Source: a virus
Lineage: Duplodnaviria > Caudoviricetes
Reading direction: 5' to 3' (one strand)
DNA length: 42,869 nucleotides
IMG/VR virus record: IMGVR_UViG_3300010220_000129
Span: 1 to 42,869 of that record
Positions within the stretch are counted from its first letter, which is position 1, and each line of letters begins with the position of its first letter. The translations under genes and the position numbers were made by a program. Shown piece by piece: positions 1 through 39,605 of this stretch. The notes below the pieces were generated by a model. That model searched no databases and was not told the DNA's origin. It saw only the letters and a list, made by a program, of their open reading frames with translations.

Positions 1-3000
1 TCAGGCCGGCACGCTGCAATCGGCAGAGAGGCCAGCGCCATAGAGCGCCGAGAGCTGGGCGACCGAGACGCTGAACCCTCCGGCGGCGCCATCGGCCGAT
101 TGACTGGCCGCGCTGTAGGTCCAGCCCGGTGCGGTGACGGTTTCCTCGCGCACGACGGTTCCGGCGACGCGGATGCGGATCAGATAGGCCTCGGTGTCCT
201 CGGACAGGGGCACCTCGACCCCGTCCCAGCCATCGCCGCCCAACCGGGTCCGGCGGGTCCAGGTCAATACGACATCGCCGCCCGGCGCGGCGCGCACAGC
301 CCGCAGGAAGACCGGCGCATAGGGGCGCAGGCCGGTGCCGCGAAAGGCCTCGGTGCTCTCGACATAGGTTGCGCCGTCATAGGCCAGCGCAGCCGGGCCG
401 ACCCGCCAGCGGCGGGCCACGGTTCGCGCGGCCAGCGGCAGGCCCACCTGCTGCACCGCCGAGTCGAGCAAGACCACGACCGCACCGGCGGCCCAGGCAT
501 CGGGGATCAGCGGTTCGGTCCCCGCCTGCCCGCGCAGGAGGCCGGACAGCCGCCAGACGCCAGGCTCCAGCAGCTCGGCGGTGGTGAACTGAAACAGCTC
601 CCATTCGGCGCCGGTGCCGATTGCGGCAAAGTTCGCGCCATCCAGCAAGGCGTCTGGCGCGACGGATTCCAGGGCCGCCAGCTGCGAAAAGGCGACCTCA
701 ACCCCGGGTCCGCGTTGCAGCAACGACGGCGCGGCGCGAAACAGCGTGGTGCGGGTGATCCCGGCCGTCGCACGCCGGGAAAGCGTGGTGTTCAGCACAA
801 AACTGCCCGAGGTCGCCGGCGCATCATAGACCGCGACGGCCCCCGGCCAGGGTGTGCCGCTGACCGCCAGATGCGGCGCGTGCGCAACCTCGTCCCCGGT
901 GATCAGCGGCAGATCGAGGAAGATCGGCACCACCGGCACCGGCGCCTGATACCGGCGGCTGGCGGGCAGGTCGTCCGATCCTTCGGGGTGGCGAAACAGG
1001 CCGGGTTCGATACGCACGGCCTCGACCTCGCGCGCGCCCGACAGCTCGACACGGTCGATCCGGTAGAGGCGATGGCCGCTGCCCTGCGGCAGGCGCACCA
1101 CGTCCCCCGCCCCGAGATCCGACGACATCGGCAGCGCAAAGCGGGCGGTATCGCGGGCAACGCGCGCCTCGGACAGCCAGCGTTTTACCGCGCCGCGTGC
1201 CTCGCCCCGGGTCAGGGTCATCGGCGGCTCGCTGCTGGCGACCTCGCCGGTGGCCTCGTCGGGGATCACCGCCTCGACGCTGCGGGTCTCGAAGCTGCCT
1301 TCGGCCTCGATATAGCTCAGGCGCAGACGGCCGGCGGTTTCCGGCTGCGAGCCGCGTGTCACCTCCAGATCCCGGTCAGGGCGCGACACCAGAAACCCCG
1401 GATCCAGCGTCACCACATCGCGCCCGTCGCGCATGCGGAACACCAGCGTGCCGGCGCGCTCGACGGCCTCGACGCCATGCGCCAACAGAAGCGGCTGCAG
1501 GGCCGCGCGCCCGGTGGTGGTGGACTCGATGCCATAGCCCCGCACGACCCCCCGCACCCCCGAGACGTCGAAATCGGCGATGCCGGCGGTCTGGCAGATC
1601 TCGGCGATGACCGCCGACAGCGGCTGGTTCGCGGCGCGCCCGGTCAGCCAGTGCCCCCCCAGCCAGTTGTCGCCATCCGACCACAAGTCGGTGCGGGCGG
1701 GGAACCAGGGCCAGGGCCGCGCGTCCCAGGCCCAGGCGTGCGAATGCGCCCAGTCGACCATCGGCCCGCCATAGATGTCGGACACCGGGTTGTTGGCCGG
1801 ATCGGACCAGTGATCGTGCAGCGCCAGCAGGTATTGCATCTGCATCAGGTCATCGCGCCGCCCGGTCGAGAAATGCGGCAGCATCGACTCCGACGATTTC
1901 GGGTCGAGGAACACGTTGGGCTGGTTCGCGCCCTTGTCGATCGCCGCGCAGCCGTATTCGGTGAACCAGATCGGCTTTGACCGGGGCTGCCAATCGGTCG
2001 GATCCTCGAGCGGGACACCGTTGATGCGGTCGGTATGCGGGTTCTCCCACCAGGCGCGCAGATCCTTGACCCGCCAGATCCAGGGTTGGTGCAGCCCGTC
2101 GGTGATCGGCGTGCGGCGCTGGTCGCGGCGCGCCTGGGCGTCGGGGTAATACCAGTCGAACCCCTCGCCGCCAGCGATGTTGGCCTGCAGATAGGCCCGA
2201 TCATGGATCGAACGCCAGCCGGCGGCATAGTCGAGATGCGCCTCGCCCTCGCGCCAATCAGCGACCGGCATGTAATTGTCGATGCCGATCATGTTCAGAT
2301 CGGGGTCCGACCAGAGCGCGTCGAGGTGGAAATACCGCGTGCCCTCGCCCGCGTCATAGCCGGCGTATTCGCTCCAGTCGGCAGCATACGTCAGCTTGAC
2401 CGAGGGGCCCAGGATCGCGCGCACGTCATGCAGCAGCGCGATCATCTGCCCGACCGCCGGAAAGCTGTCGCCGTCACCACGGATCTGCGTCAGGCTGCGC
2501 ATTTCGGAACCGATGCAGAACGCATGCACCCCACCCGCCGCCGCACAGAGCGCGGCGTAATGCAGGATGAAGCGGCGATAGGTCCATTCATCCGGGCCGG
2601 AATAGGTGACCGAACCGGGCGCGACGGCAAAATCGCCCGGCTGGACGGTGCCGAAAAAGGCTGCGACCTCGGCCTCGGCGGCGAGTGTGCGGTCGGGGCT
2701 GCCGGGCTGCCCCGGGGCTGCCGACAGGGTGATGCGCCCGCGCCAGGGCAGCGCCGGCTGATCCGCCGCGCCGCTCCAGGGGTCGGGCAGGCCATTGCCG
2801 GGCAACTGGTCCATCAACAGGAAGGGATAGAACACCACGTCCTGCCCGGCGTCCTTGAGCGCGGCAATTGCCTGGAGCACCGCGGCATCGGCGGGCGTGC
2901 CCCCATAGATCGGCGCCTCGTCGACCTGCGGCACCGTGGCCGCCGCCGTCCGCGAAAGGCCAGCAACCCGCCAGGGCATCGCCTTGCCGTCGCGTTCGGT

Positions 3001-3945
3001 GAATTCGACCTTGGGCTGGATCCGGCACGCGCCACAGCGCAGGTCGCCGCCGAACCAGGACGCAATCAGAAGCCCCGAGCGCGCATTCGGCAGCTCGGCT
3101 TGCAGAGCCTGCAGTGCAGTGGGAAAATCGGCCTCGCCGCTGGGGGTGTTCTGGTTCACCTGCGTCGACGGCCCGCGCTGCACCTCGATCGAAAGATCCG
3201 GCAGGAACGGCACCTCCTCGGTGCTGCGAACCAGCACCGGGTCGGCCGCCAGCGCGTATTCCCCGGACCCGGGCAGCCAGGCCACGCCCTGCACCGCCTG
3301 CTGCAACGTGGTTTCCCCCTCGGCCTGCGCAGCGCGGATCACCTCGAAGGAGAAGCTGGGCATGCGGTTGCCATAGGGTCCGAGGTCAAGATCCTCGATC
3401 ACCACATAGGCGATGCCGCGATAGGCCGGTGCCAATCCTTCCCCCTCGACCGCCTCGATCTTGGGATCGGCCATCTGGTCCTGGCGGCCGGTATAGACCC
3501 GCAGGTTCAAGTCCTTGCGCGCGATCTCGTCGCCATAGGCCCAGACCCGGCCGAGGCCGCTGATTTCACCCTCGCAAAGCGCGATAGCGACCGAGACGAC
3601 ATAGCGCGATTCCTCCTGAACCTTGGGGCCGAGGCCGCCCTTGGTCCGTTTCGAGCGGCCCGGGATCTCGTGGAAATCCGAAGCCCAGATAACATGGCCG
3701 GCGACCCGCATTCGGCCCCAGAGGCGCGGCACCGGCACGCCCTCGCCCGCGCCGGTGACCTGCAGGCGGTCGATGCGGCCGGTTTCCACCGCACCGGATC
3801 CTGCGCCCAGCAGCCGCTGGTCGATCAGCCGGCCGACGGTCGCGCCAACCGCGCGGCCGATCACCATGCCCGACAGCCCGAGCACCGCGCCGCCGAAATT
3901 CGCGCCAAGCGCCGCACCGGCGGCAGACAGAAGCAAGGTAGCCAT
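1..3945 (-). CDS. GTA baseplate multidomain 'megatron' / host-specificity protein (RcGTA g15-like)
   Basis: 1314 aa. N-terminus MATLLLSAAGAALG...GRAVGATVGRLIDQ, AYRGIAYVVIEDLDLGPYGNRMP, TIM-barrel segment YAADWSEY / GIDNYMPVADWR / KPIWFTEYGC, and WTRRTR near the C-terminus all match the RcGTA g15 family. Lies next to a g14-like remnant. Confidence 0.93.
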   Translation of the reverse strand: MATLLLSAAGAALGANFGGAVLGLSGMVIGRAVGATVGRLIDQRLLGAGSGAVETGRIDRLQVTGAGEGVPVPRLWGRMRVAGHVIWASDFHEIPGRSKRTKGGLGPKVQEESRYVVSVAIALCEGEISGLGRVWAYGDEIARKDLNLRVYTGRQDQMADPKIEAVEGEGLAPAYRGIAYVVIEDLDLGPYGNRMPSFSFEVIRAAQAEGETTLQQAVQGVAWLPGSGEYALAADPVLVRSTEEVPFLPDLSIEVQRGPSTQVNQNTPSGEADFPTALQALQAELPNARSGLLIASWFGGDLRCGACRIQPKVEFTERDGKAMPWRVAGLSRTAAATVPQVDEAPIYGGTPADAAVLQAIAALKDAGQDVVFYPFLLMDQLPGNGLPDPWSGAADQPALPWRGRITLSAAPGQPGSPDRTLAAEAEVAAFFGTVQPGDFAVAPGSVTYSGPDEWTYRRFILHYAALCAAAGGVHAFCIGSEMRSLTQIRGDGDSFPAVGQMIALLHDVRAILGPSVKLTYAADWSEYAGYDAGEGTRYFHLDALWSDPDLNMIGIDNYMPVADWREGEAHLDYAAGWRSIHDRAYLQANIAGGEGFDWYYPDAQARRDQRRTPITDGLHQPWIWRVKDLRAWWENPHTDRINGVPLEDPTDWQPRSKPIWFTEYGCAAIDKGANQPNVFLDPKSSESMLPHFSTGRRDDLMQMQYLLALHDHWSDPANNPVSDIYGGPMVDWAHSHAWAWDARPWPWFPARTDLWSDGDNWLGGHWLTGRAANQPLSAVIAEICQTAGIADFDVSGVRGVVRGYGIESTTTGRAALQPLLLAHGVEAVERAGTLVFRMRDGRDVVTLDPGFLVSRPDRDLEVTRGSQPETAGRLRLSYIEAEGSFETRSVEAVIPDEATGEVASSEPPMTLTRGEARGAVKRWLSEARVARDTARFALPMSSDLGAGDVVRLPQGSGHRLYRIDRVELSGAREVEAVRIEPGLFRHPEGSDDLPASRRYQAPVPVVPIFLDLPLITGDEVAHAPHLAVSGTPWPGAVAVYDAPATSGSFVLNTTLSRRATAGITRTTLFRAAPSLLQRGPGVEVAFSQLAALESVAPDALLDGANFAAIGTGAEWELFQFTTAELLEPGVWRLSGLLRGQAGTEPLIPDAWAAGAVVVLLDSAVQQVGLPLAARTVARRWRVGPAALAYDGATYVESTEAFRGTGLRPYAPVFLRAVRAAPGGDVVLTWTRRTRLGGDGWDGVEVPLSEDTEAYLIRIRVAGTVVREETVTAPGWTYSAASQSADGAAGGFSVSVAQLSALYGAGLSADCSVPA

Positions 3946-3963
3946 CGGATTGGTCCTTCGTGA

Positions 3964-4197
3964 TCAGATCAGGTCAAAGCGCGCGACGATCCGGCGCGCC
4001 CAGGGTGGGCTGAGGGGGCTTTCGACCACCCCATGCCCGCTGTAGGCATGAACGAAGCGCGGCGCGGGGCCGGGATCGGTCAGGATGCCAAGGTGCTTGG
4101 CGGTGCTGCCCGCGCGCATGCGGAACAACAGAACCTGACCGGGCAGCAGCGCAGGACCGGCGGGGGACATCACCCCCGCCAGCGCGTGCCACAGCGT
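3964..4197 (-). pseudogene. C-terminal remnant of GTA NlpC/P60 peptidase (RcGTA g14-like), truncated by prophage insertion
   Basis: TLWHAL...PGQVLLFRMRAGSTAKHLGIL...PRFVHAYSGHGVVESPLSPPWARRIVARF is the C-terminal half of g14. The N-terminal GTPY/DCLGL catalytic-Cys half is absent, and upstream of ~4197 the sequence changes to unrelated lower-GC DNA. Confidence 0.88.
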
Positions 4198-4315: not shown

Positions 4316-5392
4316 TCATGCGGCACCCTTTTCGCCCCCGAGGGGCGGCGGGATGAAGACCACGTCTCCCAGCACCCGGGTGCGCAGGCGGTAGGTGTTG
4401 GCGTGGCCGGCATGCCCCACCCAGCTCATGATCACTTGATGGACCTGATCCCAAGTCATCTTGCCTTCATGGTAGAGCCGAGCCATACGCTTCATCTTCC
4501 GGCGCATGCGGCCCGCGCTGTCCTTACGGATCTTCCGATGGGTCGGCCAGATCCGATACCCGAGGAAGTCGAGCGCCCGGCCATTGGTCAGCGAGACCGG
4601 GAAGATTTGGGTCTTGTGATTGCAGCGCAGGCCGAGGCGGGCATGCAGGAAGTCCTCGATATCGCGGCGGACACGGTGCAGGTGAGCCTTGTCGTGGCCG
4701 ATGACGGCGAAGTCATCCATGTAGCGCAGATAGCACTTCTCGCGCAGCTCGAACTTCACGAACTCATCCAGCTCGTGCAGGTAGATGTTGGCGAAGAGCT
4801 GCGAGGTCAGGTTTCCGATCGGGATGCCTCGGGGCATCGGATCGCCCGCCTCGGCGGTGCTGTCGATGATGTTGTCGATCAGCCAGAGGGTATCGGCGCA
4901 GGCGACACGGCGGCGGATCAGGCGCTTGAGCGCATCATGACAGATCGAGGGGAAGTACTTCGAGATATCGGCCTTCAGCACATGGATCACCTCATGCTCG
5001 CGCAGGGTGGCGCGAAGGAAGGCCTGGGCGCGATCAGCGCCGGCATGGGTGCCCTTTCCGGGGCGGCAGGCATAGGTGTCGAAGATGAACCGGCTGGCCC
5101 AGATCGGGTCGAGCACTGAGACCAGGGCATGCTGGACGATCCGGTCCTTGAGCGGCAGTGCTGCGATGTCGCGCTCCTTCGGCTCGAACACCTTGAAATT
5201 CCGGTACGGGCCGGTCTGGTAGGTCTTCCAAAGGAGGCTGTTCTGGATGTCGATCAGGTTGGTTTCGAGCTCGGTCTCGAAGCGGATCACGTCCATCTGG
5301 TGGCGGCGGCCCTTGATGACGCGCTTCCAGGCGGCGCGCAGGGCTTCAAAGGTCACAAACTGCTCGAACAGGTTCTTATAGGTTTTCGCCAT
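4316..5392 (-). CDS. DGR reverse transcriptase
   Basis: 358 aa with RT motifs KDRIVQHAL, KADISKYFPSI, GIPIGNLTSQLFANIYL (DGR-type IGxxxSQ), RYMDDF and DFLGY. No maturase or endonuclease domain. Adjacent to TR and avd. Confidence 0.96.
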   Translation of the reverse strand: MAKTYKNLFEQFVTFEALRAAWKRVIKGRRHQMDVIRFETELETNLIDIQNSLLWKTYQTGPYRNFKVFEPKERDIAALPLKDRIVQHALVSVLDPIWASRFIFDTYACRPGKGTHAGADRAQAFLRATLREHEVIHVLKADISKYFPSICHDALKRLIRRRVACADTLWLIDNIIDSTAEAGDPMPRGIPIGNLTSQLFANIYLHELDEFVKFELREKCYLRYMDDFAVIGHDKAHLHRVRRDIEDFLHARLGLRCNHKTQIFPVSLTNGRALDFLGYRIWPTHRKIRKDSAGRMRRKMKRMARLYHEGKMTWDQVHQVIMSWVGHAGHANTYRLRTRVLGDVVFIPPPLGGEKGAA

Positions 5393-5562: not shown

Positions 5563-5679
5563 AGCGGGCCGGAAGCCGATGTTGCTGTTCGCGTTCGAAC
5601 GTGCGTTGTTCAGGTTGAGGGCGAAGACGCCGGCATTCGAGCCATTGTTCCAGTTGCCCCCGCGGATCGGCAGACGCTC
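5563..5679 (-). repeat. DGR template repeat (TR)
   Basis: 117-nt non-coding copy of the target 3' ends. Conceptual translation ERLPIRGGNWNNGSNAGVFALNLNNARSNANSNIGFRPA, with 25 adenines and 10 AAY codons. Starts inside the avd stop codon. Confidence 0.97.
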
Positions 5680-6034
5680 AAGCCACATTACCCGCGCCCC
5701 TTTCCTGCATACTCTTGAACCAGCCGCCGATCATGCGGCCGATCTCATCAAGATGACGGCTCCAGACTTCGTAGCTTTTAAAGGAGAGGTATCCGAGCTT
5801 CTGGGCCATCCTGACCTGGCTGCGCAGCAAGTCGAGCTCCGCATCGAGGTCCTGCATCGTGGTCTTCTTGTAGTACCGCTTGTTGCAGATGATGATCAGT
5901 CGAAGGAGCGCCCACATGCTGTTGCGGATTTCCTGGCTGAGCACATGGCGCTCAGCCTTCGGAAATTGACGCAACACGACATAGCCGTACGAGATCATGT
6001 CCTCGCACTTACGGCGGATCTTGAGATCTTCCAC
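5678..6034 (-). CDS. avd: DGR accessory variability determinant (four-helix-bundle Avd)
   Basis: GTG start at 6034 after AAGGAGG. 118 aa, (M)EDLKIRRK...QFPKAERHVLSQEIRN...LDAELDLLRSQVRMA...LDEIGRMIGGW. Lies between target and TR. Confidence 0.93.
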   Translation of the reverse strand: MEDLKIRRKCEDMISYGYVVLRQFPKAERHVLSQEIRNSMWALLRLIIICNKRYYKKTTMQDLDAELDLLRSQVRMAQKLGYLSFKSYEVWSRHLDEIGRMIGGWFKSMQERGAGNVA

Positions 6035-6063: not shown

Positions 6064-6085
6064 GGGGCGGGCTATCGCCCGCCCC
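6064..6085 (-). promoter_or_regulatory. DGR target-recognition hairpin/cruciform downstream of VR1
   Basis: GGGGCGGGC-GATA-GCCCGCCCC on the coding strand: perfect 9-bp GC stem with a GRNA loop, 23 nt after the target stop codon. Confidence 0.85.
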
Positions 6086-6108: not shown

Positions 6109-7188
6109 TCAGATCACGAAAGCGGGCCGGAAGCCGATGCTGCTGCTCGCGTTCGAACGTGCGCTGTGCAGGTGGAGGGCGAAGACGCCGGCATACGAGC
6201 CATTGTGCCAGTGGCCCCCGCGGATCGGCAGACGCTCCCCCTGGTTGCGCATGGAGAAGTGCCCGCGCTCCATCGAGGTCGAATGCGGGAAGAGGCCCAG
6301 AAGCTTCAGAAGGTTCGGCACGGTCACGCCCGAGGCGGCCGTCAGGTCCTTGTATTGCTGAGAGGCCGAAGTCGTGCCGTCCGACTGGCTGGTGACCGCG
6401 ACATCGAGCTGCGGCGAGCCCGTGCCGGTGGCCGAGAGGGCGTTCCACTTCAGGGTGCCGGCCGTGCCCGGCGCCACCAGCGTCCCGTTCGGCATGATGG
6501 CGCGCCAGAGCGTGCTGGCGACACCGTGGTCCGCCTCGGTCACGGCGGCATTGTTGTCGGGGATGATCTGGATCTCGCCATCCACCAGGCGCAGGCCGCG
6601 CTGCCATTCCCAAACGTTGCCGGTCAGGTCCGCAATACCCGCCGGGCTGTTGTCGTGGAACCAGCTCATCGGACCCGAGCCGGTCAGCGTGCGCGCCGAG
6701 CCCTCGGTATTGCCGGGGGCGCTACCATCCTGGCGGCGGCCAGTTTCATAGGTCTGCGCATAATCGCGGCCGTAATTGGTGTTCCCGCGCGGCATGAAGC
6801 CATTCTTCCAGCACCACAGGGCCACAGCGGACCATTCCGCATTGGTCATCAGGTGCCAGCCCGGGCCCTTCGACACACACCGCGCTTCGGCCGTGTCGAA
6901 GCTCACGCCGGTGGTCGGGTCCTGACCCGGCATCGACAGAGCATTGCTGTCGTGAACGCGCGCCTGGTACTTGCCGACGAAGATCTCGGACTTCTGCACG
7001 CCGGACACGGTAAAGGCCGGATGGGTGCCCGAACCCAGGGCCGGATCGATGTCCTCGATATTGAAGCGCGGCACGATGCACATGACGGACGGATAGCCCT
7101 TGGCATCATAGAGCACGGTGTTGACGCCGCCCGAGGCGGCCTCGACGGATTGGCGCAGGGCGTCAGGCGTGGAAATGGTGATCCCCAT
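6109..7188 (-). CDS. DGR target 1: Mtd-like / FGE-sulfatase C-type-lectin-fold protein, probable receptor-binding protein
   Basis: ATG at 7188 after GAGGAG. Motifs VGKYQA, GWHLMTNAEW, GIADLTGNVWEW, RGGxW...GFRPA. C-terminal VR. Last gene of the tail module. Confidence 0.9.
   Translation of the reverse strand: MGITISTPDALRQSVEAASGGVNTVLYDAKGYPSVMCIVPRFNIEDIDPALGSGTHPAFTVSGVQKSEIFVGKYQARVHDSNALSMPGQDPTTGVSFDTAEARCVSKGPGWHLMTNAEWSAVALWCWKNGFMPRGNTNYGRDYAQTYETGRRQDGSAPGNTEGSARTLTGSGPMSWFHDNSPAGIADLTGNVWEWQRGLRLVDGEIQIIPDNNAAVTEADHGVASTLWRAIMPNGTLVAPGTAGTLKWNALSATGTGSPQLDVAVTSQSDGTTSASQQYKDLTAASGVTVPNLLKLLGLFPHSTSMERGHFSMRNQGERLPIRGGHWHNGSYAGVFALHLHSARSNASSSIGFRPAFVI
6121..6237 (-). repeat. DGR variable repeat VR1
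   Basis: 117 nt aligned to TR without gaps. 8 mismatches, all at TR adenines (AAC>CAC x4, AAT>TAT, AAC>AGC x3). Confidence 0.97.
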
Positions 7189-11444: not shown

Positions 11445-11466
11445 TCATACCCGGACATCTGTCCGG
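11445..11466 (-). promoter_or_regulatory. Late-promoter activator site 3 (upstream of baseplate/tail-fibre/DGR operon)
   Basis: CCGGACAGATGTCCGGGTATGA on - strand; dyad CCGGAC-N4-GTCCGG shared with two other sites; in an intergenic gap. Confidence 0.75.
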
Positions 11467-13747: not shown

Positions 13748-16700
13748 TCAGTAATCGCGGCGGGACTGGCGGGCGAGCTCGTCCTGGACGAGCTGCACGA
13801 GCTCATGGCCCATCGAGCGCAGGAGCTCTTGCATCTGCTCGCGCGACTGGAAGCCATCGCCACCGACGGCCGCGCCGCCGGTCATGGTGATGGTCGGGTT
13901 GAAGTTGATCTCGACGCGCGGGCCACCCTCGGCCGAGGCCGCGGCGGGCGCCGCTCCTGAGGCCGCAGCCCGGGCCGGGGCATCGAGGCCGACGCGCGGC
14001 AGGGCGGCGGCCGCCTGGAACACGGGCAGGTTCGCACCACCGATCGCGGGCGCCTGCGCTGCCAGCGCGGGCAGGCTCAGCGTGGCGCCGGTCAGGGCTG
14101 CCGCCATGCCGGCCGTCATGCGATGCACGGCGGCGATGGCCGGTGCGGGGCGCACGGCCCCTGCCACGGTCTCCGAGAAGCGGACGCGGTCGAGATCCGA
14201 GAGCGGGCCCACCTTGGCGGGCGAATGCGGCAGGTGATCGCGCATCGCCTGGACGGTTTCGCGGGTGGCCTCGATCGCCTGGGCGGCGCCAGCACGGATA
14301 CCCTCGGCCAGGGTGCGCATGAAGGCGATGCCATGCGAGCGGAAGGAGATGCCCTGCAGGACGGCACGCGCCGAGCGGATCGCCGCCTCGGCCGCGGCCG
14401 GAATGCCGCCCGCCTGGGCGATGGCCGCCGCTGCCGCTGCCGTCACAGCCTCAAGGCCGCCTTGCACGGGGGCAAGGCTCAGGACACTCAGGCGCTCAAG
14501 CGCTGCGGCCAGCGCCTCGACGGCCACCTGCGCGCGCTCCAGCGAGGCGGGATCGCGGATTGCCATCTCGGCCGCATCGCCCGAGGAGAAGACGGTGGTG
14601 AGCCGGTTCCAGGCCGCCCCGGCCATGTCGGCAGCCCCCGAGATGAGGCCGCTCACGGTTTCCCCGATACCCCCGAAAGCGGTGCGGATGGTCTCGATGG
14701 GCGACCAGGCGAAGAGGGCGCGCAGCCCGTCCCAGATGACAGTGATGCCGGCGAAGGCCGCCTCGATCGGGGCCTGCATGGCCGTGGCCACCGCGCTCCA
14801 GTCGAGGGCAGGCATGGCCGGCAGGACCGAGGCCCAGCTGAAGGTCGGGATATAGTCGAGCCAGTTGAGGGGCGAGATCCAGGTGAGCCAGCTGAAGGCG
14901 CCGGTGATCGCGGACGAGAGGTCGAAGCTGGGCACGAAGCTCGACCAGGCGATCGTCGGCACAAAGGCGGCCCAGTCGAGCGCCGCGCCGAGGATCGCGG
15001 ACCAGTTGAAGCCCGGGACGAAATCGAGCCAGCGCAGCGGCAGCACCCAGCTCGCCCAGTTGAGGGCCGTCAGGGCGTTGTCCCAGGTGAAGGCACCGAT
15101 CACCGCCGACCAGTCCAGCGCCGGGACCCAATCGGCCCAGCTCAGCACCGAGGCGATCACGCCCGACCAGGTGAGCGTCGGCACCCAGGCGGCCCAGTCG
15201 AGCGCCGCGCCGAGGATCGCGGACCAGCTGAAGCCGGGGATGAAATCGAGCCAGCGCAGGGGCAGCACCCAGCTCGCCCAGTTCAAGGCGGTCAGGGCGT
15301 TGTCCCAGGTGAAGGTCCCGATCACCGCCGACCAATCGAGTGCCGGCACCCAATCAGCCCAGCTCAGCGCCGAGGCGATCACGCCCGACCAGGTGAGCGT
15401 CGGCACCCATGCGGCCCAGTCAAGCGCGGTACCGAGGATCGCGGACCAGTTGAAGCCCGGGACGAAATCGAGCCAGCGCAGCGGCAGCACCCAGCTCGCC
15501 CAGTTGAGGGCCGTCAGGGCGTTGTCCCAGGTGAAGGCACCGATCACCGCCGACCAGTCCAGCGCCGGGACCCAATCGGCCCAGCTCAGCACCGAGGCGA
15601 TCACGCCCGACCAGGTGAGCGTCGGCACCCAGGCGGCCCAGTCGAGCGCCGCGCCGAGGATCGCGGACCAGCTGAAGCCGGGGATGAAATCGAGCCAGCG
15701 CAGGGGCAGCACCCAGCTCGCCCAGTTCAAGGCGGTCAGGGCGTTGTCCCAGGTGAAGGTCCCGATCACCGCCGACCAATCGAGTGCCGGCACCCAATCA
15801 GCCCAGCTCAGCGCCGAGGCGATCACGCCCGACCAGGTGAGCGTCGGCACCCATGCGGCCCAGTCAAGCGCGGTACCGAGGATCGCGGACCAGTTGAAGC
15901 CCGGGATGAAATCAAGCCAGCGCAGGGGAAACACCCAGCTTGCCCAGTTCAGGCCCGTCAGCAGGTTTTCCCAGGTGAGCAGGTCCACGAATTCCGACCA
16001 GCTGAGCGAGGTCACCCAATCCGCCCAGTCGAGGACACCCTCGATGATGCCCGCCCAGCTGAAGCCGGGGATCAGGTCCAGCCAGCGCAGGGGCATGAGC
16101 CAGCTCGCCCAGTCGAGGCCCTGGCCGAGCCAGCCCATGACCCGCGACCACCAGCCGGTGACAAAGGACGAGAAGCCCTCAAACGAGCCTTGAACGTCGC
16201 TCCACAGGCCCGTGAAGAACTCGGCAATCGGCTCCCAATAGTACCAGACCAGCAGCGCCGCCGCCGCGATCGCCGCCACCACCAGCCCGATCGGGTTCGC
16301 CATCAGCGCCAGCCCGAAGGCCCGCGCCGCCACCGCCGCCGCGCGAAGACCCGCCACCACACGGCCCGCCGCCGCCGCGCCGAGCGCCCAGAGGCCGGAC
16401 AGGAAAACTGGGATACGGTTTACAGCGGTGATCGCCAGCGCCGTACCGAAAGTCCGGATCGCGCCGATGGCCATGGTGAATTTCGGCCAGAGCCAGACGA
16501 GGCCAGTGCCAAAAGTCCGGATCGCGCCGATGGCCATGGTGAATTTCGGCCAGAGCCAGACGAGGCCAGTGCCAATCCCGGCAATCGCCTGAAGCCCCAC
16601 GCCCGCCATCGTGGCAAAGCTGCCCACAACCGAGAGGATCGGCGCCACCACGGCAAGGATGCCGGTGCCGACCAGCGCCACGCGCATGGCAATGCCGGCC

Positions 16701-25265: not shown

Positions 25266-25287
25266 TCCTACCGGGACAGCTGTCCGG
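25266..25287 (-). promoter_or_regulatory. Late-promoter activator site 2 (PI-like)
   Basis: CCGGACAGCTGTCCCGGTAGGA on - strand in the F-I intergenic region. Confidence 0.72.
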
Positions 25288-32491: not shown

Positions 32492-32980
32492 TCAGTTCCG
32501 ACCCGGACCCCTGTCCGGCGGCCTTCCCGTCCTGTCTCCGCTTTCGTCAAAATCGTCCGTCGCGCAAGGGCTCTCTTCATCGTCGAGAAGCGAGAAGAGA
32601 TCCATCTGCGCCGAGGGCACGCGGGCGCGGTAGCGCCTCACGGTGCGGATATGGCAGTTGAGGGTCCGGGCGATACGCGCCTCGGACTGCCCCTCATCGA
32701 GTAGGGTGATGATCCGGCGGGCGAGCTGCTGCCCGCGCCCGCTCAGCCAGAGCGGAACCTCCAGCGCCCCCGGGCCAAAGCGTTCGAGGATGGAAGCCGC
32801 CGCTTCCATCCCCACCGACTTGACCAGCACATGCTCCAGGTCGAGCGTCCGCCGGATGTAGATCTCGGTCCCCCCGTGGTCGCGCGCCAGACGCGCGGCC
32901 GCCTCGATGCCGGCAACCTCGGCCACCTGGCGCAGGGTCGGCGGCAGGCCGTCGAAGGGATCGGCGCGGTCCTCAGGCAT
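32492..32980 (-). CDS. Mor/C-family late transcription activator
   Basis: LPPTLRQVAEVAGIEAAARLARDHGGTEIYI plus C-terminal HTH (SEARIARTLNCHIRTVRRYR); directly before the lysis genes. Confidence 0.82.
   Translation of the reverse strand: MPEDRADPFDGLPPTLRQVAEVAGIEAAARLARDHGGTEIYIRRTLDLEHVLVKSVGMEAAASILERFGPGALEVPLWLSGRGQQLARRIITLLDEGQSEARIARTLNCHIRTVRRYRARVPSAQMDLFSLLDDEESPCATDDFDESGDRTGRPPDRGPGRN
32497..32518 (-). promoter_or_regulatory. Late-promoter activator site 1 (Plys-like)
   Basis: CCGGACAGGGGTCCGGGTCGGA on - strand, upstream of the endolysin and inside the 3' end of the Mor/C gene. Confidence 0.75.
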
Positions 32981-33239
32981 GGCGCGCCTCTGCCTCGCCC
33001 GCGCAGGACGGGTCGATGCCGCGGATCGTATGCACAAGGGACGACCCCCGGCCGCGATGGCGATAGGCGATGCGGATGGTCAGCGTGCCCTGGTTGGTCC
33101 GCCACAGGCCCGAGGTCGCGCAGATCACCCAACCCTCGTCGAGCAGATCCTTGTGATCATCGACCAGGGCCGCGCCCAGACGGGCGATCGTCGCGGCATC
33201 CGCCTGGATACGGTAGGAGCGGGACTTGCGGCGGGTCAT
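32973..33239 (-). CDS. Hypothetical protein
   Basis: 88 aa, start and stop overlap with both neighbours. Confidence 0.55.
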   Translation of the reverse strand: MTRRKSRSYRIQADAATIARLGAALVDDHKDLLDEGWVICATSGLWRTNQGTLTIRIAYRHRGRGSSLVHTIRGIDPSCAGEAEARHA

Positions 33240-33682
33240 CGATGGGCTTCCTTCTTGGCCAGGGCACGGCGCTCCCAGGACTTCAGCGCCTCGGTGACCT
33301 TGCGGGCGGCCTCGGGCTCAAGCCATTCCGGGTTGCCGATCCCCTCGGGGCGCTCAGCCGTGGCCGTCATCTTGGCGACGAAGGCGCGCAGGCCGGCGCG
33401 GGTCGGGTTCTCGGGGATGCCGGCGCGGCACATGGCGCCCCAGATCGCAAAGACCTTGCGCACATGGGGCTTGTCCGAGGGGCGAAAGCTGCGCGCGGCA
33501 TTGCCGCTGGCCGCACCCCGGGCGCGCAGGGCATCAAGCACCTGCTGACGCGCCACCTCGTCCATCGCCCGGATCGAGCGCTGGCCGGTGAGCTGCTCCA
33601 GGAAATCGCGCCAGGTGTCCTCGTCGTCGAGGCCCTGCACCTGGCGGCGGCTGGCGTGGATGGCTTTGATCGCGTTGCTCAT
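33236..33682 (-). CDS. gemA: GemA / Mu gp16 family (DUF1018)
   Basis: IKAIHASRRQ..GLDDEDTWRDFL...TGQRS...KVFAIW...LRAFV...EALKSW. Confidence 0.85.
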   Translation of the reverse strand: MSNAIKAIHASRRQVQGLDDEDTWRDFLEQLTGQRSIRAMDEVARQQVLDALRARGAASGNAARSFRPSDKPHVRKVFAIWGAMCRAGIPENPTRAGLRAFVAKMTATAERPEGIGNPEWLEPEAARKVTEALKSWERRALAKKEAHR

Positions 33683-33795
33683 TGTCTTGACGCTCCACAG
33701 TTCGAGCAAGTCACGGCACCAGGCGCCAGGCGAGATCCGCAATAGGCGCAAGGTGGAACAGGGGCAGGTTTGGGCTGCCGGACGCCAGGGGGCAT
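33679..33795 (-). CDS. 38-aa zinc-ribbon peptide
   Basis: CAYCG...CSNCGA; GGAGG upstream; stop overlaps the gemA start. Confidence 0.55.
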   Translation of the reverse strand: MPPGVRQPKPAPVPPCAYCGSRLAPGAVTCSNCGASRQ

Positions 33796-34254: not shown

Positions 34255-34338
34255 GTCGCTGCCTCCTGTTCCGGGCTGGCTCATCAGTGCGGGGGTGCCC
34301 TTGGCCCGCAGACCGCAATGCGGTTTCGCCGGGAGACG

Positions 34339-34358
34339 GGCCCGCCTCTCGGCGGGCC
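34339..34358 (-). promoter_or_regulatory. DGR target-recognition hairpin downstream of VR2
   Basis: GGCCCGCC-GAGA-GGCGGGCC on the coding strand: 8-bp GC stem with a GRNA loop, 23 nt after the stop, same geometry as at VR1. Confidence 0.85.
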
Positions 34359-34381
34359 TTCAGATGTCAGGGGATCAGATG

Positions 34382-35551
34382 TCAGAACACGAAAGCGGGC
34401 CGGAAGCCGAAGAGGCTGTTCGCGTACGAACGTGCGTAGCTCAGGTTGAGGGCGAAGACGCCGGCATACGAGCCATCGTACCAGTCGCCCCCGCTCAAGG
34501 CGATGGTTTCACGGTCAGCCCACCGGCCCCAGACGTAGTCGGGAAGGATGGCATCCTCGCGCGCATCTCTGACGGATGAGGGCAGGAACAGGAACGGCAG
34601 GTTGAAGCTGTCGCCGCCTTCGATATGCAGATCGGCCGGATAGCCGTCATCGGTGCCGGGGCCATAGGCAATGCCCGTGTTCACCCAGGCATCCGGGCCG
34701 GGGATCGTGTCATGCCAGACCTCGATCACGCCACCCTTGCTGATGCGCAGGCCATCCACAAATTGCCAGGCATTGCCCCAGAGATCATCGATGCCGCGCC
34801 AGACCGCCCCGGTGGTACCGGTCGGCTTCATGCCGCTGACATCGACGTTGCCGCGGGCGATCGCGGTCTGCACATCCGGGGTGCCCAGATCGATCAGCGC
34901 GAGGATCTGCACCGCCGCCTGATCATAGACCGACCACAGGCGCCAGCCTTGACCGAGGCCCTGACACTGGGCGCGGGCCTCGTCGATGGTGATCGAGGTC
35001 CAGGGCGCGCGATCTGCGGCCACTTCCAGCTTGCCCTCGTTCTTGCTGGCCAGATACTTGCCGACGCGCAGCACGGCGCAGGAGCGCCCGTCCGGGGTCA
35101 GGAAGGCGGGGTGCAGCGAGAAGCCTGCCGCCGCGCGCGGGCTGACCCACCACAGATGATCGTCACCCCGGATCTCGAAGCGCACCCAGAAATGCGGGAT
35201 CTCGACCAGGGCATGCCCATCGGCGGTGACGATATCGCGCATCCGCCCCCAGACCGCATGCTTGTCGAAATAGTCATGCGCGAGGGTGACGTGGTTCCCG
35301 GCCGCGTCGATCTGGTGCCAGTTGCCGTTGATGTCGAGCGCGATGCCGACAATGCCGTCACCGGCATCCGCCGCCGCAAGCTCGATCGCGCCCTCGCAGG
35401 TCTCGTCAAAGGCCAGCGCGGCATCCTGCCCGCTGATGAAGCGCCACATGTCATGGGCGTATTCGATGGCCTCGGGCAGCTTCGCGCCGGCGAGCGCCTT
35501 GTCGAGGATGCTCAGGCGCAGGTCTCGGTCAGTCATGGTCATGGTACTCAC
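34382..35551 (-). CDS. DGR target 2: remote C-type-lectin-fold (Mtd/FGE-like) protein in the early operon
   Basis: HPAF, VGKYLA, GWRLWS, GIDDLWGNAWQFVDG and GGDW...GFRPAF motifs parallel target 1. 3' end is a TR-derived VR. Start is GTG 35551 or ATG 35542. Confidence 0.92.
   Translation of the reverse strand: MSTMTMTDRDLRLSILDKALAGAKLPEAIEYAHDMWRFISGQDAALAFDETCEGAIELAAADAGDGIVGIALDINGNWHQIDAAGNHVTLAHDYFDKHAVWGRMRDIVTADGHALVEIPHFWVRFEIRGDDHLWWVSPRAAAGFSLHPAFLTPDGRSCAVLRVGKYLASKNEGKLEVAADRAPWTSITIDEARAQCQGLGQGWRLWSVYDQAAVQILALIDLGTPDVQTAIARGNVDVSGMKPTGTTGAVWRGIDDLWGNAWQFVDGLRISKGGVIEVWHDTIPGPDAWVNTGIAYGPGTDDGYPADLHIEGGDSFNLPFLFLPSSVRDAREDAILPDYVWGRWADRETIALSGGDWYDGSYAGVFALNLSYARSYANSLFGFRPAFVF
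34394..34494 (-). repeat. DGR variable repeat VR2
   Basis: 101 nt aligned to TR without gaps. 10 mismatches, all at TR adenines (AAC>GAC, AAC>TAC x3, AAT>GAT, AAT>TAT, AAC>AGC, AAC>CTC, ATC>TTC). Confidence 0.97.
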
Positions 35552-35566
35552 TCCCTTGGATGGCGG

Positions 35567-36232
35567 TCAGGCGCTGGCCAGATCGATGGTGATGGGTTCC
35601 CAGCGGGCGCGGGCATGCTCGCGGCGGTAGAAGCGCAGGTATTCCTTGGAGCCGATCACCCGGATCGCATCGGACAGCGCATCCATGGCGGCGCGCCATT
35701 CCGGGTCACCGTCCTCGACGCGCATGCGGCGCAGCTGGAACAGGGCCGAGCGGTTGATGCGCCCCTCCTTGTCCACCTGGAAGGCATGCTGGATCAGCGT
35801 GCGCACCTGCGCATTCGAGCCTTCGGACCAGCGCGAGATGCAGACATCGACCAGTTCCTTCGCCGCCTGAAGCTCGGGGCCGAAGGTGATCTGGTCCTGC
35901 ACCTGGACCTTGACCTGCAAAGTGCCGTCGAAGCTCGTGAGCGTGACATTGCCCTTCGCGCCGCCCAGGCGGCGGCCGTATTTCTCGTTCATCAGATCGA
36001 TGGTGGTGACGATGTCGTCGAAGGTGTGCCCGTGGAAGCGGCTGATCTGCGCGGACAGATCCAGGGCGAAGCCGCAGATCTTGCGCGTGGTCTCGTCCAT
36101 GAGGAGATCCTCGGGCTGGATGGTCTCCAGGGGCACGAGGTGGCCCGAGGTATTGCGCATGTACTTCTCGCCCTGGATCTCGATGATGCCATCGGCGGGG
36201 GCTTCGGGCTGAATGTCGGTCTGGGTATTCAT
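35567..36232 (-). CDS. DUF3164 family Mu-like early protein
   Basis: GHLVP, GGAKGNVTLTSFDG, FGPELQAAKELVD, AFQVDKEG and SKEYLRFYRR motifs. Confidence 0.88.
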   Translation of the reverse strand: MNTQTDIQPEAPADGIIEIQGEKYMRNTSGHLVPLETIQPEDLLMDETTRKICGFALDLSAQISRFHGHTFDDIVTTIDLMNEKYGRRLGGAKGNVTLTSFDGTLQVKVQVQDQITFGPELQAAKELVDVCISRWSEGSNAQVRTLIQHAFQVDKEGRINRSALFQLRRMRVEDGDPEWRAAMDALSDAIRVIGSKEYLRFYRREHARARWEPITIDLASA

Positions 36233-36264: not shown

Positions 36265-36546
36265 TTACGCGGGGGTTGCGGGGTGGTGCGGCGCAGGTCG
36301 CTGGATCGCATCCAGTCGCTTGCGCCAGGGATCGAGGCGGACCACGTTGCCCGCCTCGCTGGGGGGTTCGGGGAGGGTGGCCGAGGCGGGCACGACCAGC
36401 CCCTCGATCAGCTCGACCCGGTCGGCCACATCGGCCAGGACATCGAGCGCAAGGTCGAGAAACTCGGGCGTGAGATCGCCCTTGTCGGAGGTGTCGCGGA
36501 GGGAGAAGTTGATCGCGCGGATCTCGCCGGACAGCATCATGCTCAC
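36265..36546 (-). CDS. Hypothetical early protein
   Basis: 93 aa, coupled to the B gene stop; AGNVVRL motif. Confidence 0.6.
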   Translation of the reverse strand: MSMMLSGEIRAINFSLRDTSDKGDLTPEFLDLALDVLADVADRVELIEGLVVPASATLPEPPSEAGNVVRLDPWRKRLDAIQRPAPHHPATPA

Positions 36547-37523
36547 TCCTGCCCGCCGAGATTGACGCGGGCCTGGCGCAGGGCCGCGAGGGTGACCTCG
36601 CCGCCGCTCGCCATCGAGGCCAGCGCCAGCACCTTGCTCGCGCCGCGCAGGGCGCCGGGCTCGGCAGCCACCTCTTTCAGCAGCTCGACCTCGGGCGCGC
36701 CCTTGACGCCCCAGGCGGCCGCCAGCGCCCGCACATCGCCCACGGTCGGGCGCGGGATGAAGAGGCGCATGCCGATGCGGCTGAAGATCTGGGCAAAGCG
36801 CATCGAGCGGTTGCCGCCCGTCAGCCGCGAATAGACCTCGGGGTTGCCCGCGAAGACGAGGCCGATGCCCGTCGCGTCATGGATCGAGATCCGCAGTTCC
36901 TCCAGCGCCGAGGTCGAGAGATGCTGCGCCTCGTCGATGATCAGGAGGCCGCGCGTGCCCTCGATCTTGCGGCGAATGGCGCGGGCGATCCGGCGCGCAC
37001 CACCCCCGGCATCGCGCAGACCGATGGCCTCGGCCACCTCCTCCAGCGCCGGCACGAGGCCCGCGCTGTCGGGCGACATGGTGGCGATCCAGACCGAGGG
37101 GTTGGTGTCGCGGTAATGGCGGAAGGACTTGGTCTTGCCCACGCCGGGATTGCCGTAGATGCAGACGATGTCGCCGGCCATCTGGGCATAGCTCAGCGCA
37201 TTCACCACCTTCTCGGCCGAGGGCGAGCGGAAGAACTCGGGCGCCACCGGCATCGAGCCCGCCACCTGGTCGCGGCGCTCCTGATTGTCGAGCCAGATCT
37301 CGACCGCCGCTTCGACGGCCGGGATGTTGCCCTGGTACTTGCCGTTGAGCCACTGGTTCAGCGCCGTGCCGGAAATGCCGATTTCCTGACCGGCCTTGAC
37401 CTGCGACAGGCCACGGCGGGCAATGGTGGCCCGGGCGCGATCGATCAGCGGCAGGCGGCCGCTCACATAGTCATCTTCCTCGGTCTCGGGGGTCATCTGG
37501 ACAATCTGGGCGTTCGGGGTCAT
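36543..37523 (-). CDS. MuB-like DNA transposition protein (HTH + AAA+ ATPase)
   Basis: N-terminal HTH (SQVKAGQEIGISGTALNQWLNGKY), Walker A GNPGVGKT, Walker B LLIIDEAQHL, QIFSRIG. Confidence 0.93.
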   Translation of the reverse strand: MTPNAQIVQMTPETEEDDYVSGRLPLIDRARATIARRGLSQVKAGQEIGISGTALNQWLNGKYQGNIPAVEAAVEIWLDNQERRDQVAGSMPVAPEFFRSPSAEKVVNALSYAQMAGDIVCIYGNPGVGKTKSFRHYRDTNPSVWIATMSPDSAGLVPALEEVAEAIGLRDAGGGARRIARAIRRKIEGTRGLLIIDEAQHLSTSALEELRISIHDATGIGLVFAGNPEVYSRLTGGNRSMRFAQIFSRIGMRLFIPRPTVGDVRALAAAWGVKGAPEVELLKEVAAEPGALRGASKVLALASMASGGEVTLAALRQARVNLGGQE

Positions 37524-37592
37524 GATCTGCTGTCTCCTCAAGATGCAGTTGCAGGGGCTGGCCGGTCGGCGTGGGGCGCCGCCGGCCGTTTC

Positions 37593-39605
37593 TTATTCCG
37601 CGGGCGGGATGCCCTGACGGGTGCGGATGCCGGCAAGAGCGCGGCGCATGAAATCGCTCTGCTCGTCCTCATCCTCGGCAAGGCCGGTCGGACGCTGGCG
37701 CGCCGCCATCGCCGCGAAATCGATCACACCAGGCGCGGCTTCGACTTCGGGCAGGGCGCTGTCGCGGGTCGGGTCGGGGATGGCGCGGAAATGCGCGGCC
37801 ACCACGGTCGAGCTGGGCTCAGGCGGCGGACCTGCCTCTTCGGCTCGGGCCTCGATGGCCTTGCCGTAGAGGTTCTCGCGCTCCAGCTGGCTCATGCGGC
37901 TCGCGGCTTCGGCCTGTTTCTTGGTGGCCTTGACCATCCGCGCGCGGTTCTTGTTCCACTCGCGGCCATCCTCGGTCGCGTTGAAGCCCACGGCGGTCAT
38001 ATGCTTGACCTCAAACAGGTACCGGCCATCGAGCGAATAGACATGCGCGCCGCCGTGCAGGTTCTCGGGGTCGAAATGCGCGACCACCTTCTTGCCTGCC
38101 AGCGCGGCCGAGGCCTCGCACCAATAGCGGTTGCGGCCATAGGCACCCCGGCCCGCGTCGATTGCGATCTCGCCCGCCTGGTTCACGGTCACCACCTCGC
38201 GCACCATCAAGAGAAGGCGGCGCTGACGCTCGGCAAAGCGGCGGAAGGTGATGCTGGCGGTCGCTTCTTCCCAGGCCTGATCGAAGCTCAGGATGCCCCG
38301 GCAGGCCATGGTCCGGCGCTTGGGCTGGGCGTTGTGGCGCGCGACCTCATGGACAAGGGCCGCGTGCAGCTCCTCATAGGTGATCGCCGTGGCCTTGCTG
38401 TAGCCGCGATCGATAAACGAGGGATGGGTTGCCACCTTGTCGTGCAGGCCGCCTATGCCGAAGGCGCGCTCGATCGGCTTCGCGCCGGGGTTGCCCGTCT
38501 CCTTGTCCGGGTTGGTGAAACGCGGATCGATGCCGAGCGCGATCAGCAGGCCCACACCGTCGCTGTCACCATCCTTGAAGCGGTGACGGTTCTCGGCGCC
38601 GGCGGTCATCAGCTTGTTGGCGGCCACGCGCGTGTTGTCGATATACATGATCGAGGGCGCGCAGACCCCGGTCAGGTCATAGGTGGCCAGCCGGAAGAGG
38701 TCGGTGTTCTCGGTCTTGCCCAGGCGCCAGGCGAGGATCTTGCGCGTCCGGATGTCCTGGAAGAACCAGGCGGTGGCGGTGTTGAGGATCTCGCCATCGG
38801 GGAACTTGACCCAGAGGCGGTCGAATTTCAGACCGTCACCGTTGACCGCCTCGCCCGCCGTGAACACGCTCTCGTCGCGGCGCTGCTTGGGCAGGCGGCG
38901 CGCCAGCGCCTCCATGCCTTCGCGCATCAGCACCACGGTCAGCGGATCGATGTCGCTCTCGACCCGGCGCTCCAGCGTCTTGCCGCTCGGGATCACCCAG
39001 CCCTCGACGGCGGCGATCTCTTCCAGGCGGCGATAGGTATCGGCATGGCTCGGGGCGCGCCGCGTCAGGTACTGGCCCAGATACCAATCCCAGGCGCGCG
39101 GATCGCATTCGGCGCGGTCGGTCTTGCCGACATAGCGCGGTGCCAGCGCGGGCAGCCAGTTGCGGCGCTCGACGGCCTTCACCATCTTCGCCCAGCGGCG
39201 GATCGTGGCAGGGCTCACCTCGGCATCTTCCGCGACAAGCTCGGCCGCCGAAACGCGGCCCACGCCACTCTCGACCAGCGCCTCGACGGCGGTCAGCACC
39301 TTCAGGCGGAACTCGGCCTCGTCCTTCAGCGTCTGCGACAGGCGCTCGTAATCCGCCCAGGCCTCATCCTGCGGAACCTCGGCCGGCGTCGGGGCGGCGA
39401 CGGCCTTGCGGTGGCGCAGGAGATAGGCCGCGCGCGCCCGGTCGGGCAGGCTGGAGTAATGGTATTCCAGGCCACCGCCGCGTTCCTCGCGTTCACGGCA
39501 AATCCAGTCGTCACGCCGGGCGCGGCGGATGAACCCACTCTTGCTCTCGGGGGCGCCCGGAAGCCCCTGCGCGGCCCAGTCCGCCGCGGTCCGCCATTCG
39601 ATCAT
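37593..39605 (-). CDS. MuA-like DDE transposase
   Basis: N-terminal Mu DNA-binding motif (GGGLEYHYSSLP); catalytic NGDG / YIDNTR / AKPIERAF; C-terminal Mu-transposase domain. Confidence 0.94.
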   Translation of the reverse strand: MIEWRTAADWAAQGLPGAPESKSGFIRRARRDDWICREREERGGGLEYHYSSLPDRARAAYLLRHRKAVAAPTPAEVPQDEAWADYERLSQTLKDEAEFRLKVLTAVEALVESGVGRVSAAELVAEDAEVSPATIRRWAKMVKAVERRNWLPALAPRYVGKTDRAECDPRAWDWYLGQYLTRRAPSHADTYRRLEEIAAVEGWVIPSGKTLERRVESDIDPLTVVLMREGMEALARRLPKQRRDESVFTAGEAVNGDGLKFDRLWVKFPDGEILNTATAWFFQDIRTRKILAWRLGKTENTDLFRLATYDLTGVCAPSIMYIDNTRVAANKLMTAGAENRHRFKDGDSDGVGLLIALGIDPRFTNPDKETGNPGAKPIERAFGIGGLHDKVATHPSFIDRGYSKATAITYEELHAALVHEVARHNAQPKRRTMACRGILSFDQAWEEATASITFRRFAERQRRLLLMVREVVTVNQAGEIAIDAGRGAYGRNRYWCEASAALAGKKVVAHFDPENLHGGAHVYSLDGRYLFEVKHMTAVGFNATEDGREWNKNRARMVKATKKQAEAASRMSQLERENLYGKAIEARAEEAGPPPEPSSTVVAAHFRAIPDPTRDSALPEVEAAPGVIDFAAMAARQRPTGLAEDEDEQSDFMRRALAGIRTRQGIPPAE

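Follow-up and report, generated by a model that had tools for sequence, protein, structure and literature searches.

Why would a gene hypermutated by a phage DGR stand among the early genes of a Mu-like prophage, tens of kilobases away from the template that rewrites it? The question is raised by a window of 42,869 nt (the whole stretch of DNA analysed, positions 1 to 42,869 of IMG/VR record IMGVR_UViG_3300010220_000129). An earlier note, made from its letters alone, had proposed that one reverse transcriptase (RT) and one template repeat (TR) serve both a target at the tail end and a second, early target, called target 2 here.

Layout of the prophage and its DGR cassette

The Pfam and PHROG annotation identifies the window as a Mu-like transposable prophage on the minus strand, with MuA, MuB, GemA and a Mor/C-like activator, and also with Mu portal, protease, major head and contractile tail genes. 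The genes around target 2 run in the order MuA, MuB, hypothetical, DUF3164, target 2, small ORFs, GemA, small ORF, Mor and amidase, while the tail end of the prophage holds target 1, avd, TR and RT in cassette order. A repressor was sought in the window and none was identified. The main features are as follows.

4316..5392, minus strand: DGR reverse transcriptase, intact, 358 aa (RVT_1, phrog_1423)
5563..5679, minus strand: template repeat, TR (repeat comparison)
5678..6034, minus strand: Avd accessory protein (PF22296, 115 bits with a cut-off of 40; phrog_3206)
6064..6085, minus strand: VR1 hairpin with a GATA loop (folding)
6109..7188, minus strand: target 1, a TaqVP-like C-lectin that stands alone where the tail operon ends (FGE-sulfatase, phrog_2889)
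6121..6237, minus strand: VR1, 117 nt, 8 adenine-specific differences from TR (TR alignment)
32492..33751, minus strand: GemA and the Mor/C-like late activator with a small ORF between them, downstream of target 2 (Pfam, PHROG)
34382..35542, minus strand: target 2 gene, intact, 386 aa, protein P0001 (ORF; likely start ATG at 35542)
35567..36232, minus strand: DUF3164 gene, directly upstream of target 2 (Pfam)
36543..39605, minus strand: MuA transposase and MuB ATPase of the early operon (Pfam, PHROG)

The gene of target 2 had been drawn to 35551 in the earlier note. The intact ORF stands, and the likelier start is the ATG at 35542, the GTG at 35551 being an alternative start that lies 15 nt past the DUF3164 stop and would give a 389-aa form.

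Outside the prophage, positions 1-4190 belong to a host GTA-like cluster (Pfam, PHROG) with an Rcc01698-type tail gene at 1-3945, whose neighbour, a truncated ORF from 3964 to about 4185 that we take to be NlpC/P60-like, is cut by the prophage end. This cluster points to a Rhodobacterales host in which the insertion breaks a GTA gene. Inside the prophage, the tape measure gene carries Trp-rich repeats of 222 nt (74 aa) at positions 14823-16126.

Target 2 is a remote second target of the same RT and TR

A repeat finder detected one 134-nt repeat family with three copies in the window. The alignment of TR, VR1 and VR2, which the earlier note had called for, places every difference at a TR adenine: 10 of the 101 positions of VR2 differ from TR (23 A in the aligned TR), as do 8 of the 117 positions of VR1 (25 A), and the chance of all ten VR2 differences landing on A is about 6e-8. 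The two VRs carry different alleles, and TR and VR2 are 28,831 nt apart. VR2 is followed by its own cis elements.

34394..34494, minus strand: VR2, 101 nt, 10 adenine-specific differences from TR (alignment to TR 5563-5663)
34359..34393, minus strand: IMH-like element, common to VR2 and VR1 and unlike the IMH* of TR (sequence comparison)
34339..34358, minus strand: VR2 DNA hairpin, 8-bp stem, GAGA (GRNA) loop (folding; loop type kept in relatives)

Retrohoming by a DGR requires both the hairpin and the difference between IMH and IMH*. A GC hairpin with a GRNA loop lies beyond each of the two VRs; the 66-nt stretch with the VR2 hairpin has a DNA folding z of -3.1, and the VR2 hairpins of relatives have GAAA, GGAA, GGCA or GATA loops. 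The cassette has the hallmarks of a BPP-1-type DGR, with an RT beside TR, Avd, A-only VR changes, a C-terminal VR in a C-lectin, IMH/IMH* and the hairpin. The earlier note had recognised a TR match of about 100 nt with ten adenine differences some 28.8 kb away, together with a GRNA hairpin of its own, and the A-only differences, the shared IMH and the hairpin mark target 2 as a genuine remote second target of one RT and TR.

VR2 is rewritten from the TR of its own phage

The TRs of seven phages differ from each other at non-adenine positions, and these differences serve as a fingerprint of each phage's TR. VR2 has no non-A mismatch to the TR of its own phage in six of the seven, and 3-18 such mismatches to the TRs of the other phages, except for L002 and L044, which have a single TR in common. 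The VR2 of L006 departs from its own TR at eight non-A positions, which are confined to the 5' part, a pattern consistent with partial overwriting after a change of TR.

The earlier note had named an invariant VR2, or variation outside adenines, as findings that would speak against its reading. Neither was found: L003, L045 and L165 have no difference in 688-798 nt of scaffold and 12-13 differences in the 102-nt VR, all of them at TR adenines. Between L002 and L166, 12 positions are changed in the VR versus 4 in 454 nt elsewhere. The scaffold itself is under purifying selection, with a dN/dS of 0.09-0.22 in all seven pairs (699 nt before the VR). Compared at this level, the repeats and alleles show that one RT and TR has rewritten two VRs, and from the assembled alleles we infer that the DGR is currently active in the window's isolate.

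Target 2 joins a helical hairpin to a C-lectin domain

The AlphaFold (AF2) model of target 2, predicted from 88 sequences with a mean pLDDT of 91.5, supersedes a first model with a pLDDT of 66 that was based on a shallower alignment. In this model, the lead folds into a helical hairpin of two helices (residues 8-39 of the 389-aa form), followed by a flexible or disordered linker (residues 44-62). The part after the linker is an FGE-type C-lectin domain with VR2 at its C-terminal end, the VR of the family being 33 residues long. The nearest structure is TaqVP (Z 27.1, rmsd 2.6, 256 residues aligned, 28% identity), followed by TvpA (Z 15.0) and Mtd (Z 14.3).

The Pfam search of target 2 gave no match, and its sole family label is PHROG 5302 ("tail protein"), which matches residues 111-387 with an E value of 2e-34. 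All of the named viral structure models among the top matches are tail fibres. Together, the PHROG, structure and family matches make the tip domain of target 2 homologous to tail-fibre tips.

The lead of about 60 residues, in which a fibre or baseplate anchor was sought, has no tail-family match. Since target 1 is also a standalone C-lectin, the missing anchor carries little weight and leaves room for docking to the virion. A search for the origin of the helical lead among shorter proteins gave one match, a 39-aa fragment of target 2's own family; the matches in the ESM Atlas, to small viral hypothetical clusters, scored 0.80-0.81 and so fell short of real matches, and Pfam gave nothing useful for 28 family members. 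The short helical N-terminus described in the earlier note is borne out by the hairpin, which is unlike the lead of target 1, and the absence of an evident signal peptide agrees with the hydropathy scan, where no segment rises above KD19 1.26. Target 2 is acidic and has no DNA-binding module.

Target 2 is likely to be expressed early

Target 2 is far from the RT and no part of the structural module; it lies between DUF3164 and GemA. Its immediate neighbours are Mu early genes, with no recognisable counter-defence island or methyltransferase. A conserved motif, GGACANNTGTCC, is found at 25274-25285 and 11453-11464, before the protease and baseplate genes, and in a variant form before the amidase.

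32505..32516, minus strand: first putative late-promoter motif, a variant of GGACANNTGTCC, before the amidase (motif search)

Its position suggests that the motif is a late promoter. All three copies are downstream of target 2 and none is upstream, and in relatives the motif is found at the amidase and protease positions, the two that their loci cover; early co-transcription of target 2 with DUF3164 is therefore likely, as far as motif positions can tell. The gene order given in the earlier note, with target 2 upstream of Mor/C and of three late motifs, holds.

Orthologues keep to the early region

A search of 8000 candidates gave 35 matches, namely the protein itself, 27 near full-length proteins with an identity of 43-66%, and 7 that match less well. 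Orthologues of full length are located between MuB/DUF3164 and GemA in L001, L002 (identical to L043, Pseudoruegeria), L005, L006 (identical to L047, Devosia), L008, L044 (Actibacterium) and L048 (Neomegalonema), and truncated copies follow DUF3164 in L049 and L050. In L003, L045 (Antarctobacter) and L004 (identical to L046, Sediminimonas), the orthologue follows a small leading ORF upstream of MuA. The search for an early-region target in related Mu-like prophages, which had been suggested in the earlier note, thus finds full-length orthologues in two places, both of them early, and no orthologue within the tail module, indicating that the gene moved yet stayed in the early region. The layout is found in named environmental isolates, Antarctobacter heliothermus DSM 11445 and Devosia elaeis S37.

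An RT was found in 10 of 15 orthologue records, including all four viral records that are at least 90% complete, and the misses are four fragments (69-87% complete) and the Neomegalonema MAG prophage (L048, G014:C23). At its tail end, which is complete, this last prophage has a non-lectin fibre of an unrelated kind and no DGR, but it keeps an intact target 2 orthologue, which has a degenerate VR and sits on a long branch.

Among cultured phages, 24 records match target 2, none of them covering 80% and the best with an identity below 40%, so that no close orthologue was found there. In the 251 genomes of the G009 family, target 2 is present in one, a close RT in two and a close portal in three, the second RT genome ending before the early region. 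A related DGR (G012:C98) has a single VR in its genome, indicating that this RT type is not always paired with a second target. In the Pseudoruegeria aquimaris prophage (L053/L057; G002, G009), VR2 still matches TR; codon 55 of the RT is an in-frame stop, so the DGR of this isolate is probably inactive.

Free early lectins appear to have more than one origin

The lectin module of target 2 belongs to a family of 4737 clusters, in which it is mostly the tip of long tail proteins, the relatives mostly having 450-1000 aa. A scan with short family members, of which the best 80 of 249 confirmed stretches gave 79 kept loci, separates fibres of about 850 aa, which usually have avd-TR-RT behind them, from free copies of 320-400 aa located far from an RT. 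The 104 neighbours of 15 free-copy loci include, by PHROG, RecE, Erf, SSB, dUTPase, methyltransferases, antirepressor, Lar-like, CII-like and primase genes, and at other loci among the 15 the neighbours are MuB, Gam, GemA and Mor. The family members L085, L092, L094 and L011 have methyltransferases or a Lar-like gene as neighbours.

With one non-A mismatch allowed, the VR of the free copy matches the TR of its own record in all eight same-contig pairs. It does so in four of six further records, with L087 and L091 not matching; L243 and L228 also match the TR of their own records. Three of four further free-copy records are without an RT, at a completeness of 56-73%. Two tandem RT genes stand at the end of each prophage record of L181/L186 (G022) and L182/L187 (G021), and the TR enclosed by them no longer agrees with the remote VR of L091, which suggests a replacement of the cassette.

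A tree quickly built from 27 early and 30 tail rows, calculated with the VR removed and containing long branches, needs four changes of the early label, and a single clade of early copies is rejected (p-AU 0.006). The early copy of L011 is 66% identical to the tail tip of its own phage, and across the family some leads form a helical hairpin and others a P-loop-like segment, while some members have no lead. The P-loop-like lead measures about 65 residues and belongs to the early lectin targets at L017:8025-9224 and L154:7677-8858 and in P0027 and P0039. A recent duplication of target 1 can be ruled out as the source of target 2, since the two share 27% identity outside the VR, fall into different PHROG families (phrog_2889 and 5302) and target 1 ranks last of 57. 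By these comparisons, target 2 probably derives from a tail-fibre tip family and not from target 1. Free early copies appear to have arisen more than once, through repeated recruitment of tail tips into early operons.

A hammerhead motif follows target 2

Downstream of the VR2 hairpin we found a ribozyme motif that the earlier note on target 2 did not mention.

34270..34331, minus strand: type II hammerhead motif with a loop I-tail pseudoknot, predicted cut after 34311 (RF02276)

The window copy scores 33 bits, compared with an Rfam gathering threshold of 37 (E 1.2e-4), and the orthologous copy in L005 scores 39.3 bits. The core elements CUGAUGA, GAAA and GUC are intact, both stem I and stem III are closed and stem II is open. 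The pseudoknot is GGGC/GCCC in the window and shows a two-sided change to CGGC/GCCG in the L163 group.

In the first 65 loci, a hammerhead follows target 2 in eight cases, all eight being DUF3164-GemA orthologues, and one also follows the distant L140 target. None was found near L003, L004, L045, L048, L017, L154 or 11 other parsed free-target loci, nor in eight Mu-like loci without target 2. Across 118 viral loci, the pattern of this hammerhead type matches 207 times and 23 of the matches lie behind a C-lectin ORF, in a count that takes overlapping loci twice, includes 38 loci with short flanks and uses a pattern derived from these same copies. As only these 23 follow a lectin gene, the hammerhead is ruled out as a general DGR part, and it is best read, from its distribution, as a general phage transcript-processing element acquired by some early targets. 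L076 and many of L194-L311 carry arrays of the same type II hammerhead family, several per contig and away from lectin genes.

In the L163 group (L163:5355-6571, L153, L156, L160 and L161), the early DGR target lies between two hammerheads and is predicted to be released as a single-gene RNA; the VRs of the ten copies in this group are all different. The record IMGVR_UViG_3300032155_000021 (L227-L229) contains two tandem hammerhead-lectin-hairpin units, 1160 nt apart and with different VR alleles, which may be either a real duplication or an assembly artefact.

Possible functions of target 2

We think, with moderate confidence, that a single DGR rewrites VR2 and that target 2 is made early and acts as an intracellular, variable binder of host proteins. 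The cassette of avd, TR and RT at the tail end would rewrite the adenines of VR2 28.8 kb away. Retrohoming of the BPP-1 DGR works in cis or in trans, and VR2 could be reached in either way. Target 2 would be transcribed with DUF3164 before the late activator is made, and its free C-lectin would stay in the cytoplasm and bind a host protein with its variable surface, the most plausible aim being to weaken a defence or divert a host function. The gene may have originated when a tail-fibre tip without its anchor was fused to a short early ORF. The hammerhead is predicted to cut the early transcript 71 nt past the stop of target 2, separating off the GemA-Mor part, and each lysogen lineage would have its own VR2 allele, to be selected at the next infection. 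The intracellular role is favoured by a target that is anchor-less, early-placed, intact and conserved, and is kept in the Neomegalonema prophage without a DGR. Against it stand the label "tail protein" and the tail fibres among the structural neighbours. The broader idea, that temperate phages have repeatedly made tail-tip lectins into free, early, DGR-hypermutated binders, an antibody-like repertoire directed against intracellular defence proteins of the host, with hammerheads setting the message free as a separate unit in some Mu-like phages, is put forward tentatively and is less likely than not.

Target 2 could instead be a displaced virion protein, made early and assembled later, either as a second receptor-binding protein or accessory adhesin or as an injected protein. 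Its domain is a tail-fibre tip in relatives, target 1 demonstrates that a standalone C-lectin can sit in a tail module, and the published second targets of the Toutatis and Bacuni phages discussed below are, in the descriptions available, interpreted in this way. We nevertheless regard this role as unlikely, as the orthologues seen are all early, at two different sites, the leads in the family differ or are absent, that of target 2 being unlike target 1's, and target 2 is kept where the tail fibre has been replaced by a non-lectin type.

A phage-versus-phage binder or receptor decoy, blocking co-infecting phages or re-adsorption, would fit an origin in a receptor-binding tip and the close similarity between the early copy of L011 and its own tail tip. 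In the window, the low identity of target 2 to target 1, the different alleles of VR1 and VR2 and the absence of an evident export signal in the hydropathy scan make such a function improbable; early operons are, moreover, normally repressed in lysogens.

DGR mutagenesis requires only cis elements at the target. Target 2 might hence be a passenger whose IMH and hairpin attract retrohoming, or a donor of alleles for recombination with VR1, and the degenerate VR and long branch of the Neomegalonema copy could be understood in this way. The purifying selection on the scaffold, the intact ORFs in 28 homologues and the more than one origin of early copies render this very improbable. Finally, we give hardly any credence to a variable adaptor steering MuA/MuB transposition to host DNA-bound proteins, a role that the earlier note had considered and that the operon common to target 2, MuA and MuB in all close relatives might suggest, because non-transposable prophages have equivalent free early targets next to RecE, SSB and primase genes, and target 2 is acidic and lacks a DNA-binding module.

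Comparison with known systems

A DGR with a distal, probably non-structural second target has been published before, and the window adds a case to this known layout. Wu et al. (2017, PMC5758913) describe many prophage DGRs in which an adjacent target is accompanied by a non-adjacent one within 50 kb, an arrangement within a single prophage that the window shares; in the passages available, the non-adjacent targets come without operon context or function. Closest to our case are Quimbyvirus, described as having a distal, probably non-structural second target near methyltransferases (Benler et al. 2021, PMC8008677), and four prophages of the gut whose second VR is distal and whose target is reported to be near counter-defence genes (Dahlman et al. 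2025, PMC12629997). There too, the same RT and TR serve a tail target and a distal C-lectin, and the distal targets were interpreted, in the passages available, as non-structural proteins in phage-host conflict. These are human-gut phages, with the second target near methyltransferases and, in Quimbyvirus, on the opposite strand (PMC8008677, PMC12629997), whereas the window is a transposable phage with alphaproteobacterial relatives, in which the target stands in line within the MuA-MuB-GemA operon and is followed by a hammerhead motif.

The Faecalibacterium phage FP_Toutatis has a second VR 17.5 kb from the cassette, read as receptor-binding (bioRxiv 10.1101/2024.10.15.618418), and the Bacuni phages have a distant second target interpreted as an adhesin (PMC8143477). 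Both resemble the window in having a far second VR in a small C-lectin-like gene; as described in these two sources, one domain family serves for both targets of a phage, unlike the two targets of the window with their 27% identity and different PHROG families. TaqVP from a Thermus aquaticus prophage DGR (PDB ID 5VF4, PMC6328139) has the same FGE-type C-lectin fold and C-terminal VR and is described as a single-domain monomer, to which target 2 adds, in the model, the N-terminal helical hairpin and linker.

Remote targets would escape the screen of Roux et al., by a statement of that paper (PMC8144416), and a 2026 preprint survey reports, in its available part, no DGR aimed at a known anti-defence protein. 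Our literature search, largely of open-access main texts, found no paper on an early-operon DGR target in a Mu-like phage or on a link between DGRs and hammerheads; the available parts of PMC6199706, PMC3521204, PMC8987985 and PMC12636319 contain no early-operon case, and no DGR passage was found in PMC12366544. Type II hammerheads flanking prophage genes have been proposed as transcript-processing elements (Perreault et al. 2011, PMC3088659), and the window copy is like those described there in its core, open short stem II, loop I-tail pseudoknot and phage-intergenic position, differing in that it follows the hairpin of a DGR target.

The question of whether DGR targets bind intracellular proteins dates from Quimbyvirus, and the family of target 2 makes it testable, as the variation among its natural alleles is confined to the 33-residue VR and the two targets are dissimilar enough for proteomics to separate them. 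Should free targets made early prove to bind host proteins inside the cell, DGRs would be a means of adaptive counter-defence in addition to host-range switching. The virion tropism protein Mtd of Bordetella phage BPP-1 is the only phage DGR target described, in the sources at hand, as experimentally studied. The window shares with BPP-1 (mtd-avd-TR-brt) the cassette order target-avd-TR-RT, the adenine-specific differences, IMH/IMH* and the hairpin, as well as the Mtd fold match; BPP-1 has a single target, a trimeric tail tropism protein, and the window DGR has two. To the published dual-target layout, the present case adds TR-fingerprint and allele evidence for rewriting, a scaffold unrelated to that of the tail target, evidence for more than one origin of the early copies and a ribozyme motif.
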